DNA of 64,000 nt from Candidatus Poribacteria bacterium (GTDB lineage Bacteria > Poribacteria > WGA-4E > PCPOR2b). This document shows, piece by piece, positions 16,976 through 41,850 of the stretch. Below the pieces are notes generated by a model. The model made no database searches. It was not told where the DNA came from and saw nothing but the letters and a program-made list of their open reading frames with translations. A program made the translations under genes and the position numbers. Positions within the stretch are counted from its first letter, which is position 1. Each line of letters starts with the position of its first letter. The stretch lies in the NCBI GenBank assembly GCA_965116925.1, contig OZ220744.1, positions 3,008,001-3,072,000 on the forward strand, read 5' to 3'.

Positions 16976-17623
16976 GGCATGTTGATGTTTATGTGAGGCG
17001 TGTGTCCAATCGTAGGGGCGAGGTCTCCTCGCCCATCCCCCAACGTGGGTATCGTAGGGACGAGGTCTCCTCGCCCATCCTCCAACGTGGGTTAGGAGAA
17101 CCGAACCATACGGGTTGGACAGATTGTAGGTCGAGATTCATATCTCGACACGGAACTGTCGATTTTGGAAAATCGACCTACAGAAGTCCGCAATCGTTTC
17201 TGATGTGTGAGCAAAGGGTTGGGAGACCCAACCCCTACTAGGTTGCTGTTGCACGTTTTCTTAACACGAGCCAAAGTAGATAGTCTTTTGTACCACAATC
17301 TGTTAGATTGTGATTCTTTTGCTTGGGTAAGACGCTATTGCCGATCTGGACTTTTGTACCACAATCTGTATGAAGTTTAAGTATTTAAATTGGTAATCCC
17401 TATTTGCCTCGAAACATACGGTAGGCGCGGTTGAAAACCGCGCCGGCATCGCTAGCAAATTACCGAATTATTTTTTTAATTTTCATTTAGATTGTGATTC
17501 TTTTGCTTGGGTAAGACGCTATTGCCGATCTGGACTTTTGTACCACAATCTGTTAGATTGTGATCCCACCCCGCAAACTGACAGTTTGCGCTACAGTGTC
17601 CAGTTAATTCTGAAATCTACTAT
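16976..17623. repeat. Mosaic REP cluster with tandem units and MITE ends
   Basis: Two GTAGGG(G/A)CGAGGTCTCCTCGCCC units, a GTAGGTCGA hairpin pair, GGGTTGGGAGACCCAACCCCTAC, three tandem GTACCACAATCTGTTAGATTGTG units with identical spacers, and a family A right end. Confidence 0.85.
17370..17486. mobile_element. Family C 117-bp MITE inserted in a REP hairpin loop (copy 1)
   Basis: TIRs ATGAAGTTTAAG..GGTAAT / ATTACCGAA..TTTTCAT; host GTACCACAATCTGT|TTAGATTGTG. Confidence 0.88.
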
Positions 17624-17661
17624 AAATTTACCGCTCACGCATCATTTGTACAGAGGAGGCA

Positions 17662-18567
17662 ATGCGATCCGCACGTTTTTCTCGCGGGTTCAGTGACTAC
17701 CAGATCAAGATGGCGTTCATCATGCCGACCATGATCTTGCTCATCTTGATGAATATTTTCCCGCTGCTATGGTCATTGTACTTGAGTTTTCATCGTTATA
17801 AGGCTTCCATGCCGAACCGTCCGGCAAAGTTTATCGGCGTCCAGAACTACGCACGGCTACTGAGCGATCCGGAGATCTGGGGCTATTTTCAAACGACCGC
17901 TTACTTTGTCGTACTCGCCGTTATTACTCAATTCATTATCGGTTTCGGATTGGCGTTGCTCCTCAATCGAGAATTTCGATATAAGGGGCTTGTGACAACG
18001 CTGATTCTGTTACCGATGATGCTCTCGCCGGTTGTCGTCGGTCTCTTCTGGCGTTTCATCTTCGCGTCCGATGCTTCAGGGTTGGTCAACTACCTGCTGA
18101 GTCCGCTGTTCGGAGGAGCAATCGGCTGGACGACAGACCCAAAGATTGCCATGCTCGCTGTCGTGATTGTCGATACGTGGATGTGGTCGCCGTTCATGAT
18201 GCTAATCTCGCTGGCTGGTTTGTCCGCTATCCCCAAGTATCTCTATGAAGCTGCAGATGTAGACCGCGCCTCTCGATGGTTCAAGTTCCGTTGGATCACC
18301 CTGCCGTTGGTTTCTCCTCTGTTACTAATCGCACTCCTGTTCCGCACGATGGATGCCTTCAAGATGTTTGATATTGTTTACGTGCTGACCCGCGAAGGGG
18401 GACCGGGGATAGCGACGGAAACGGTTTCAATGAACCTGTACAGGCTGGCGTTTCGGAATTATAACACCGGCAAAGCGTGTGCAATGGCATACCTACTCCT
18501 AATTATCATTGTTGCGTTGAGCAACATTTACGTGAAACAACTAAATAAGGTTCGCGGTGAGGCGTAA
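17662..18567 (+). CDS. Sugar ABC transporter permease (MalF-like)
   Basis: FIGVQNY, LYEAADVD (EAA motif), ITLPL. Confidence 0.92.
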   Translation: MRSARFSRGFSDYQIKMAFIMPTMILLILMNIFPLLWSLYLSFHRYKASMPNRPAKFIGVQNYARLLSDPEIWGYFQTTAYFVVLAVITQFIIGFGLALLLNREFRYKGLVTTLILLPMMLSPVVVGLFWRFIFASDASGLVNYLLSPLFGGAIGWTTDPKIAMLAVVIVDTWMWSPFMMLISLAGLSAIPKYLYEAADVDRASRWFKFRWITLPLVSPLLLIALLFRTMDAFKMFDIVYVLTREGGPGIATETVSMNLYRLAFRNYNTGKACAMAYLLLIIIVALSNIYVKQLNKVRGEA

Positions 18568-18568
18568 G

Positions 18569-19723
18569 ATGGCACAGATAGAACGCAATAAATTTGGACA
18601 CTACGCCGCACTCACTGTGATTGCGGTGGCAGTGATAGTCTACCTCACCCCAATTTACTGGATTGTTGCAACCTCCCTGAAATCACCGGCTGATATTATT
18701 GCACAGGTTCCCCAATTCCTGTTCCAAGTCACGTTTGAGCATTATCAGAAGTTAATGCCCGATGAAGTTCCCGGACTTACATACGTCTTTATTGCATACA
18801 CGTTGATCGGTATGCTTGCCTGCCTTTTGCCCTTTCGAGACATGGTGCTTGCGCGTCGTTTTGCACTTCTGTGGAACGGTGTGTTGGTTGTAACCTGTCT
18901 TTACGCGCTTGCGACCACCATCAACTACAATTTCCTGATGTTGGCGATTTATACAATCGTCGTTTTCCTGCTGATTTCTCCTCAACGGGCAAGCGATGCG
19001 CGACGGCTTCGCCTGTCCCTCATCGGTGCCGGTGTATTGGCAATTGTTGCCATCTGCACACTGCTTGCAGACAGCGGGTCGAAATACTTCCACCAACTGC
19101 TGAATAGCATCATCATCGGGTTCGGCAGCACCCTTCTCGCTGTTGGGTTTGGCACACTGTCCGCCTATGCGTTCTCACGCTTCAAGGTCGCAGGCAAGGA
19201 AGATCTGCTCTTCTTCATCCTCAGCACACGGATGCTTCCTCCCGTCGTCGTTGTCATACCAATTTACCTGATGTACAGCGCACTCGGATTGCGCGATACT
19301 CACTTTGGACTTATCCTGCTCTACACCACCTTCAACGTCTCCTTTGCGGTCTGGTTGATGAAGGGTTTCATCGACGAAATCCCGAAGGAGTACGAAGACG
19401 CTGCCCTTGTCGATGGGTACACCCGCTTCCAAACCTTTGTTAAAGTTGTCCTGCCCCAATCTGTGACGGGGATTGCTGCGACGGCCGTTTTCTGTTTAAT
19501 CACGGCGTGGAACGAGTTTGCCTTTGCATTGGTGTTGACTGAGGTTGGTGGCAGAGCAGTGACCGCCCCACCCTCAATCACCAGTGCGATTGGATCGAGC
19601 GGCATTGATTGGGGGAAGATCGCTGCTGCGACCTTTGTGTTCCTCTTACCCGTTGCGATTTTTACCTTCCTGATGCGGGGGCACCTATTGCGTGGTGTCA
19701 CATTTGGCGCGGTCAAAAAGTAG
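18569..19723 (+). CDS. Sugar ABC transporter permease (MalG-like) with extra transmembrane insertion
   Basis: NSIII, AYAFSRF, IPKEYEDAALVDG, WNEF; about 100 extra hydrophobic residues near the N-terminus. Confidence 0.88.
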   Translation: MAQIERNKFGHYAALTVIAVAVIVYLTPIYWIVATSLKSPADIIAQVPQFLFQVTFEHYQKLMPDEVPGLTYVFIAYTLIGMLACLLPFRDMVLARRFALLWNGVLVVTCLYALATTINYNFLMLAIYTIVVFLLISPQRASDARRLRLSLIGAGVLAIVAICTLLADSGSKYFHQLLNSIIIGFGSTLLAVGFGTLSAYAFSRFKVAGKEDLLFFILSTRMLPPVVVVIPIYLMYSALGLRDTHFGLILLYTTFNVSFAVWLMKGFIDEIPKEYEDAALVDGYTRFQTFVKVVLPQSVTGIAATAVFCLITAWNEFAFALVLTEVGGRAVTAPPSITSAIGSSGIDWGKIAAATFVFLLPVAIFTFLMRGHLLRGVTFGAVKK

Positions 19724-40968: not shown

Positions 40969-41026
40969 CTCTCTTTCAATCTGCGTTTATTTTGATTGGC
41001 GTTTTCTGTGTAGTTATCGCGGCAAT

Positions 41027-41593
41027 TTATTCTAAAGGAGTGGAATTTCTGTCCTCCCATTCCGAGCGGAGGAGACCGTACAGGTACATATCATAGCGTT
41101 TCCCATCCCGCTGTAGATGTTCCCGATATACACCCTCACGCTGGAAACCCAGCTTTTCATACAGCGCGATGGCCCGTTCATTGTAGCTGAACACCGTGAG
41201 TTGGACGCGATGCAAATTGAGTTCATCAAAGGCAAACTGAAGCGCAAGTTGCATGACTTCGTATCCGTAGCCTTGCCCCCGATGTTTTGTCTCCCCAATG
41301 GCGATGCTTACGCCGCTTACCCGATGTGCCCATAGGATTCCGTCGAATTCAACATAGCCAATCAGTTCATCGCTGTCAAGGAAACGAACAGCAAAAAGAA
41401 AAGTATCAGTTGCTTTATCCGTATCATCTATCCACTGAGCCAAGACTGCCTCAGTTCTCGGATAAGCAGGGAGCGCGTCGAATAGTCGTAAAAATTCGGG
41501 ATTCTGATGCCACTGGATAACGGTTGGGAGATCGCTTTGCGTTAACGCTGTGAGTTGGACTCGGCTACCGCGCAAAAGCGTCGAAGGGGTCAT
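41027..41593 (-). CDS. GNAT acetyltransferase, RimJ/RimL family
   Basis: RGQGYG, LNLHRV, N..A..LYEKLGF..EG. Confidence 0.9.
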   Translation of the reverse strand: MTPSTLLRGSRVQLTALTQSDLPTVIQWHQNPEFLRLFDALPAYPRTEAVLAQWIDDTDKATDTFLFAVRFLDSDELIGYVEFDGILWAHRVSGVSIAIGETKHRGQGYGYEVMQLALQFAFDELNLHRVQLTVFSYNERAIALYEKLGFQREGVYREHLQRDGKRYDMYLYGLLRSEWEDRNSTPLE

Positions 41594-41630
41594 GCCTAGG
41601 ATTCCTAACGGATGGATCGCGGCCCGCTGT

Positions 41631-41850
41631 TATAGTGAATTCAAAAAATAAAGAAACACTTGCGCCCCCCCGGTAGGTGCGGTTAATGAAGTTTAAGTAT
41701 TTAAATCGGTAATCCCTATTTTCCTCGAAACATACGGTAGGCGCGGTTTTCCCCCGCGCCGGCGTCGCTAGCAAATTACCGAACTGTTTTTTTAATTTTC
41801 ATTCAACCGCACCGGTTTGGCGTGTCCTATTAATTCTAAAATCTACTATA
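41631..41850. mobile_element. Complete family A shell whose REP is interrupted by family C
   Basis: Both ends present; interior matches 2195-2294 once 41686-41802 is removed. Confidence 0.85.
41686..41802. mobile_element. Family C 117-bp MITE in a REP loop (copy 4)
   Basis: Host GTAGGTGCGGTTA|TCAACCGCACC. Confidence 0.88.

Follow-up and report, generated by a model that had tools for sequence, protein, structure and literature searches.

The locus examined here poses the question of how a short non-coding repeat comes to lie, copy after copy, at the very tips of DNA hairpins that differ from one another in sequence. The window, by which we mean the whole analysed stretch of 64,000 nucleotides (positions 3,008,001 to 3,072,000 of contig OZ220744.1) from a Candidatus Poribacteria bacterium, contains four copies of a 117-bp repeat, here called e1 to e4. 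On the genome-wide evidence set out below we hold with high confidence that this repeat is a real, active-looking miniature inverted-repeat transposable element (MITE) of an IS630-family element, whose copies sit almost throughout on hairpin axes. A preliminary description of the window had reported four exact 117-bp copies with imperfect terminal inverted repeats (TIRs) of about 28 bp, each splitting a different host hairpin at its apex; all four are indeed present, each with ATG...CAT ends and 19-20 of 28 positions matching between its own TIRs, and in all four differing hosts the apex is the point of entry. Each copy carries an internal hairpin with a GTAG head, of the repetitive extragenic palindrome (REP) type. 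The copies, their host hairpins and a repeat beside e1 are as follows.

17303..17369, + strand: left copy of a 67-bp exact direct repeat beside e1, running loop to loop; a possible long target duplication, and the sole such case among the 108 sites of the genome
17356..17369, + strand: left half of the e1 host hairpin (right half 17487-17496), from a family with a 3-nt loop (GTT); central base duplicated; 35 empty genomic copies, all with a 3-nt loop
17370..17486, + strand: MITE copy e1, 117 bp, 28-bp TIRs, internal GTAG hairpin 17421-17443; right end 27/28 identical to one end of the autonomous IS630 element
17487..17553, + strand: right copy of the 67-bp direct repeat
19777..19790, + strand: left half of the e2 host hairpin (right half 19908-19917), of even symmetry; no base duplicated; 51 empty genomic copies, all even; empty orthologues in genomes G126 and G121
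19791..19907, + strand: MITE copy e2, 117 bp; internal GTAG hairpin 19842-19864, folding with z -4.0 as DNA
23622..23635, + strand: left half of the e3 host hairpin (right half 23753-23762), with a 3-nt loop; 1-bp duplication; record 7 of run X1 lacks 118 = 117+1 bases
23636..23752, + strand: MITE copy e3, of the second subtype; GTAG hairpin inside at 23686-23708; right end matches the opposite end of the autonomous IS630 element at 27/28 positions
41673..41685, + strand: left half of the e4 host hairpin (right half 41803-41813), from the commonest REP family; irregular junction, no duplication
41686..41802, + strand: MITE copy e4; internal GTAG hairpin 41737-41759

A BLAST census located 107 loci in the 6.47-Mb genome (G000), 95 of them intact; the intact copies measure 98-127 bp, with 93 falling at 115-117 bp. 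A profile of the element ends returned 240 ends, which resolve into 107 paired elements and 26 orphans; with one pair that the filter had missed added by hand, the set comprises 108 elements, a few chimeric pairs among them being retained. Counting a site as a hairpin when positions 2-9 to the left and right of the junction form at least 6 of 8 complementary pairs, we found that 100 of the 108 elements qualify, against 0.4% of 20,000 random positions, and that in every shifted register only 0-2 of the 108 do so. An identical base flanks both sides in 85 of the 108 and TA flanks none. Collecting all genomic copies was a check that the preliminary description had itself proposed, and with 100 of 108 on a hairpin axis it does not bear out the fear that most copies might lie outside hairpins. 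The 100 hairpin sites comprise 9 repeated hairpin families and 5 other hairpins, and fall into 46 context clusters. As to their distribution, 27 of the 108 elements lie in one of 13 half-megabase bins, at 3.0-3.5 Mb of G000:C1, which includes the window.

That the REP within each copy regenerates a target, as had been suggested from the window, is supported by 8 to 10 of the 108 elements, which sit inside the REP of another copy, with nesting up to triple. The triple stack, at L002 (G000:C1:4122104-4123578), consists of a 115-bp MITE that holds a 117-bp MITE that in turn holds an insertion sequence (IS), each in the REP loop of the outer one. At two loci (L003, G000:C1:949181-949327, and L004, C1:3411772-3411918) a 147-bp element has the same ends and another interior lacking the GTAG hairpin, and has the same loop type as its target. 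The loop of the internal hairpin of the MITE (for instance at window 17421-17443 and 41737-41759) occurs among the copies in mutually inverted forms, such as GAA/TTC, GGA/TCC and GCA/TGC, and a longer one of this kind also exists, an indication that the hairpin centre often flips.

The enzyme had been expected to be encoded outside the window, and a search for longer elements with the same TIRs, likewise proposed beforehand, recovered two copies of a 1,241-bp element elsewhere in the genome (G000:C1:1430426-1431666 and 4122211-4123451). They differ at 17 positions (98.6% identity) and have 28-bp ends and one intact open reading frame (ORF) of 384 aa. The ends of the window MITEs match those of this IS at 20-27 of 28 positions, the interiors showing no similarity, and the target pattern is common to both. 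Each IS copy is lodged in the REP loop of a MITE, one at a depth of three layers. The repeat thus has the features of a MITE, being short, non-coding and present in many copies, with TIRs common to an autonomous IS and both filled and empty alleles (at 5 sites).

The 384-aa transposase scores 161.8 bits with the NCBIfam IS630 model NF033545 (cut-off 100) and matches the Pfam domains DDE_3, HTH_32 and HTH_29. Its residues D191, D273 and E334 are conserved, its AlphaFold2 model has a pLDDT of 91, and the nearest solved structure is Mos1. TIRs around an element of ~1.1-1.3 kb, a further feature of the IS630 family, are found here; a TA target with a 2-bp stagger is not, and neither is the family's DD34-35E spacing, there being 60 residues between D273 and E334 (DD60E). 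The spacing of the DDxE motif is described as variable in the superfamily and as no reliable family marker in one account (PMC11544213). We file the autonomous partner under IS630 because of its transposase type and call it a variant, as far as its sequence tells, because the TA feature fails. IS1182 was ruled out as its identity, since neither Pfam nor NCBIfam, searched at E 0.1, returned an IS1182 match for the transposase. Hence the earlier idea of a possibly undescribed system is upheld in one respect and not in another: the enzyme belongs to a known family, while we did not find such behaviour described for IS630. In a plasmid collection there was no match to the 384-aa transposase at 1e-20, and a distant homologue used as query gave only a 27% IS630; viral contigs yielded six weak loci, none with a measurable insert between the catalytic residues.

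We then asked what the insertion does to its target. When empty sites were rebuilt with one base removed, again as had been proposed, exact empty copies were found for 65 of the 85 compatible sites (59 in that form only, 6 in both forms); of the rest, 19 match neither form and e2 matches only the form with nothing removed. The insertion at e2 is a 0-bp one: in G126 and G121 (2 of 13 orthologous loci fetched) the corresponding site is empty and no shorter, and all 51 empty members of its host family are even-symmetric; a third fetched locus has a similar hairpin in a different context. At e3, in contrast to this 0-bp case, the run X1 contig lacks exactly 118 bases, a 1-bp duplication, and the same length is found at C1:3454090, C1:3452871 and C1:3144701, where the orthologues have 3-nt loops (that of C1:3144701 with one substitution). 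In the 0-bp and the 1-bp cases alike each flank retains two stem-internal bases. The duplication thus follows hairpin geometry, odd-symmetry hairpins giving 1 bp and an even one 0 bp, and the earlier figure of 0-1 bp is confirmed by empty orthologues. The junction of e4 is irregular, its left side being one base short and the duplication absent, and no orthologous empty site for it was found among four genomes searched. Around 5 further regions, e4 included, orthologue searches (3 of 20 fetched stretches searched) mostly found the whole intergenic cassette missing. For the commonest junction, none of the 4-nt loops expected as excision footprints were found. At four junctions (G000:C1:2316388, 2341949, 3121734 and 3214156) only half of a hairpin, of one and the same family, stands beside unrelated sequence, in the manner of one-sided deletions.

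A comparison of filled with empty hairpins throws light on what a target must look like. The preliminary description had the cut 13-14 nt from the start of a GTAN head and in constant orientation to it. Both hold at the four window copies, which have a GTA[GC] head; genome-wide the cut tracks the loop, and the orientation is a bias only, for at the 96 of the 100 hairpin sites to which an orientation could be assigned the head is on the same side in 53, opposite in 15, on both sides in 2 and absent in 26. By position in all 100, the head lies to the left in 55, to the right in 16 and on both sides in 3. Insertion is at a fixed point of the REP, namely the hairpin axis, with 72 of 77 GTA[GC] distances equal to 14 nt. 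GTAN itself is dispensable, being absent from the 26 headless hairpins, and the head does not appear to be selected because it is about equally frequent in empty (684/857) and filled (57/67) perfect hairpins. A fixed distance from GTAG was ruled out as the rule, as the distances vary from 13 to 15 with the length of the stem and insertion also occurs in headless hairpins; nor is there specificity for one REP family, given the families and headless sites counted above.

A simple linear motif had been named as what might undo the hairpin interpretation. Of 44,938 intergenic sites with the linear core YYDNHRR, however, only 973 (2.2%) have paired outer arms, as against 91 of the 108 insertions, which rules out the core alone as the target. 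Certain base preferences are nevertheless evident at the stem ends: these are two pyrimidines in 64 of 67 perfect-stem targets versus 302 of 715 empty open-loop hairpins, and stems ending in G occur in none of the 67 versus 264 empty hairpins. Counting both sides of every element, there is a pyrimidine at -4 in 204 of 216 and at -3 in 207 of 216, and C at -2 in 1 of 216. The proposal of structure-guided, largely sequence-independent targeting is therefore sustained as regards the choice of hairpin tips across unrelated hairpin sequences, and has to be narrowed by the pyrimidine stem ends, the avoidance of G-ended stems and stem ends specific to element variants. For instance, the 115-bp subtype lies in the commonest hairpin family at 1 of 21 sites versus 55 of 79 for the others, these sites not being fully independent, so that p-values overstate the contrast. 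A palindrome family with long loops, of ~330 genomic copies and mostly with 8 nt between the arms used, has received one insertion, in a short-loop form; its members at window 13110, 13761, 38170 and 39971 illustrate a class almost never used by the element. Two tandem 42-nt units at window 17009-17092 form a GTAG hairpin with a G-ended stem, a class never hit.

Relatives of the transposase at 64-75% identity come from Candidatus Poribacteria, and a match at 1e-30 is present in 32 of 121 genomes of the phylum. From 81 relative loci examined we set aside 10 without an end, 1 that was mis-anchored, 3 duplicates and 5 belonging to the control described next, leaving 62 autonomous copies from other genomes of the phylum. 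A 1-bp duplication is present in 51 of these, the stem has 4 or more of 5 pairs in 56, and TA flanks 1. The stem ends go with transposase identity: copies at 68% or above use TT/CT (76/82 sides) and those at 56-67% use CC (35/42), and the 115-bp subtype of the present genome has CC stem ends like the latter. Near-identical young autonomous copies in other genomes occupy different hairpins. The control is a DD35E relative from the same phylum, 35% identical and with ends of the same ATG...CAT type; of its 16 loci 11 are paired elements, and all 11 carry a TA duplication in CTAG, two further loci reading as TA by eye; therefore the ends of the element are fixed and the loss of TA is real. A reading of the ends as TG...CA, as in IS3, was ruled out, since the A and T are absent from the empty sites and the TA-duplicating relative also has ATG...CAT. 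Same-ended MITEs with other cargo occur in related genomes, at L267 and L268 in G126 and at L222 in G127; they include a 155-bp form with two REP hairpins and one with a different GTAG hairpin.

Taken together, these observations lead us to favour, as the more probable account, a transposase that reads the extruded hairpin by its structure along with a short half-site. The non-autonomous 117-bp MITE would be mobilised in trans by the IS630-family DDE transposase of the 1,241-bp element; by analogy with Tc1/mariner, a dimer would excise the element and join each 3' end to one target strand. Each subunit would engage one arm of the palindrome, reading the half-site pyrimidine, pyrimidine, not-C, any base, and would attack two nucleotides ahead of the 3' stem arm. 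With the attack point so fixed on each arm, the target would itself set the stagger, a 3-nt loop yielding 1 bp and a 4-nt centre 0. This would be simplest to explain if the target were an extruded hairpin or cruciform whose loop bases are unpaired. Because the REP inside each MITE is itself a valid target, insertion would renew a harmless intergenic landing site and give rise to nested stacks.

Several observations weigh against this account. Most targets belong to repeated REP-like families, which confounds palindromy with family identity, and the largest context cluster holds 25 of the 100 sites, whose long shared flanks may mean joint duplication. The 0-bp case is that of one hairpin family, a family-wide pattern search for which found 5 places with facing junctions, 4 blunt and 1 with an extra base. 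The simple duplication rule is broken by three of the 108 sites, e4 included, that are one base short and by C1:2957354, which resembles a 1-bp duplication in a loop of 5 nt. Moreover, the loop bases are mismatched at 23 of 108 junctions, 21 of these without a matching empty site. We assume inter-copy recombination behind them, and in one review recombination is the standard explanation of hybrid junctions, seen with ISRm22 (PMC1525189).

The best-surviving alternative keeps the same IS630 MITE and gives it an ordinary duplex target: the dimer would read a symmetric degenerate sequence and bend and melt its centre as Mos1 does, long stems merely reflecting that REP-type repeats are abundant, harmless and symmetric places. 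The clear half-site preference and the subclade-specific stem ends, TT/CT or CC, speak for it, as does the statement that Mos1 unpairs and flips target bases (PMC5481204). Yet 97.8% of the intergenic core sites are not hairpins, while most insertions have paired outer arms of differing sequence, and both 0 and 1 bp are hard to obtain from a fixed duplex geometry; we consider it rather unlikely. A REP-hairpin-binding partner, either a REP-associated tyrosine transposase (RAYT/TnpA-REP protein) or a host factor, might instead recruit the transposase or nick the site, the IS630 protein then being no reader of hairpins. The genome has five Y1_Tnp (PF01797) matches, all above cut-off (G000:C1:6296312, 701269, 328972, 5955107 and 6178252), which are candidate RAYT-like genes, and 74 of the 100 hairpin targets have a GTA[GC] head with the orientation bias of 53 to 15. 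Against such a partner stand the 26 headless targets, the similar commonness of the head in empty and filled perfect stems, the large GTAG families with G-ended stems that are never hit, and a target preference that tracks the transposase subclade, and we regard it as improbable. The notion that there were few true insertions, copies having spread with their host hairpins as compound repeats (through another MITE, gene conversion or REP proliferation) while purifying selection cleared away insertions elsewhere, would suit the context clusters of 25 and 13 sites with common 60-nt flanks and the recombination to which the 23 mismatched junctions point, but the 46 distinct contexts, the near-identical young autonomous copies in different hairpins elsewhere, the existence of empty orthologues and a single-base precision beyond the reach of selection make it very improbable, the empty orthologues and multi-copy autonomous elements having already largely refuted it.

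Returning to the proposed hairpin-reading transposase, its sequence offers a candidate for the structural basis, an insert of ~25 residues, at about 288-313, between the second aspartate (D2) and the glutamate (E) that accounts for the DD60E spacing. A D2-E spacing of 59-60 is found in 116 of 120 close homologues. Among representatives of distant clusters 95 of 149 were measurable (94 without a 46-residue case), 49 having 58-63 and 43 having 32-36 residues; within the insert, Q, P, W and LP are conserved. In Sleeping Beauty, P247 and K248 presumably lie just after the second aspartate, near the start of the insert in the G000 protein. Aligning the transposase with Sleeping Beauty gave only a 38-residue match (E 0.047). 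P247 and K248 are reported to influence target choice (PMC8934666).

Among the best 80 of 458 metagenome loci of distant relatives, fetched with an insert alignment, the ends are of the same type. In 100 single flanks T stands at -2 in 95, and the base at -1 is A in 24, C in 1, G in 34 and T in 41, a spread that fits neither TA nor a general 1-bp duplication. Two flanks are available for 36 distant DD57-70E loci. TA flanks 3 of them, and 12 lie in stems with 5 or more of 6 pairs, where 5,000 shuffles averaged 1.2 such loci and never exceeded 7; GTAG lies exactly 13 nt away in 7 of 96 flanks. These distant insertions look like blunt insertion into even hairpins. As for their empty sites, 3 hairpins with 4-nt centres were seen inside fetched loci, and a scan of one distant host hairpin gave 15 mixed matches.

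At e1, the 67-bp repeat fits two element ends attacking neighbouring loops, and this is one case only; in G126 a single hairpin occupies the position, though tandem arrays of the same host hairpin also exist without the element. Loop-to-loop deletion, the counterpart of such a duplication, would suit the junctions that are flanked by GTA[GC] heads on each side. Joining these strands, we tentatively propose that a widespread, undescribed branch of IS630 (DD57-70E; 49 of the 95 clusters at 50% identity that could be classified among the best hits) may have gained a hairpin-reading insert in the catalytic domain. Each subunit would find the hairpin loop on its own strand, so that the duplication equals 4 minus the loop length, and ends engaging two neighbouring hairpins would duplicate (67 bp at the copy at 17370) or delete (double-head junctions) the intervening DNA. 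Set against this proposal, two thirds of the distant two-flank loci have no long stem, and the metagenome flanks are possibly chimeric, as short contigs may join flanks of different copies. Three loci (L096, L100 and L114) bear the insert and are nonetheless TA-flanked; the insert is tied to the loss of TA as a correlation, and a tree built with the insert removed left the backbone unresolved and a single origin of the insert not settled.

The window has some further features. An array of ~15 or more 15-nt units lies between two paralogous genes at 21981-22297, and upstream regions before neighbouring ORFs of ~350-375 aa are duplicated (19993-20084 / 21693-21784 and 20532-20636 / 21882-21986), which suggests tandem paralogues. 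Two tandem 96-nt units at 54291-54482 are 71% alike and apparently coding. At gathering scores there are 0 Rfam matches in the window.

Textbooks use the IS630/Tc1/mariner group to exemplify strict insertion at TA with an unvarying 2-bp stagger, and widely used tools such as Sleeping Beauty and mariner come from it. A natural branch that abandons TA for hairpin tips, with a stagger varying with target geometry, would come with built-in controls: a TA-using relative of the same end type, two subclades that prefer different stem ends, and a single candidate insert. With it one could test how a DDE enzyme chooses structured DNA and whether REP hairpins extrude in cells, and it offers an example of a MITE carrying its own landing site. 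If the tentative proposal is true, the insertion sites of the DD57-70E branch are a genomic record of in vivo cruciform or single-strand hairpin formation. In a literature search that covered sources other than most subscription journals, ISfinder and supplements, we found no account of an IS630 element targeting hairpins or lacking TA.

Among known systems, the IS1182 family shows a tendency toward insertion in palindromes, and the present element is set apart from it by its transposase, which lacks the family match sought above. IS200/IS605 elements and RAYT (HUH, Y1) resemble our system in that hairpins with a GTAG-type head are central to them (PMC2817692), the cargo and many targets here being such REPs; they are unlike it in that transposition here is the work of a DDE enzyme and TIRs, the hairpin being the target and not the end of the element. 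A fixed insertion point in the REP is common to the REP-targeting IS (IS1397, ISKpn1 and ISPsy8 of IS3; IS621, ISPpu9/10, ISPa11 and ISRm19 of IS110; ISRm22 of IS4). In the part of the review on hand, REP targeting is reported for five families, IS3, IS110, IS4, IS256 and IS5, with IS630 not listed there, and ISPsy8 and ISRm22 insert at the palindrome axis; these elements use the REP consensus of their own host with a fixed 2-6 bp repeat (ISPa11 none), whereas here many unrelated stems are used with a geometry-dependent 0-1 bp (PMC1525189). IS630-derived MITEs are known (PMC2817692), and like Correia and RUP the present MITE is short and moved in trans. With IS630, Mos1 and Sleeping Beauty the autonomous element has in common an HTH (helix-turn-helix) and RNase H-fold DDE transposase above the NF033545 cut-off, TIRs of ~28 bp and a symmetric target. 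In the words of one source, mariner/Tc1/IS630 elements integrate "with a 2 bp stagger, strictly at TA" (PMC5481204); unlike them, the element described here has no TA, a duplication of 0-1 bp, a target on the hairpin axis, DD60E in place of DD34-35E, and a REP cargo that renews the target.

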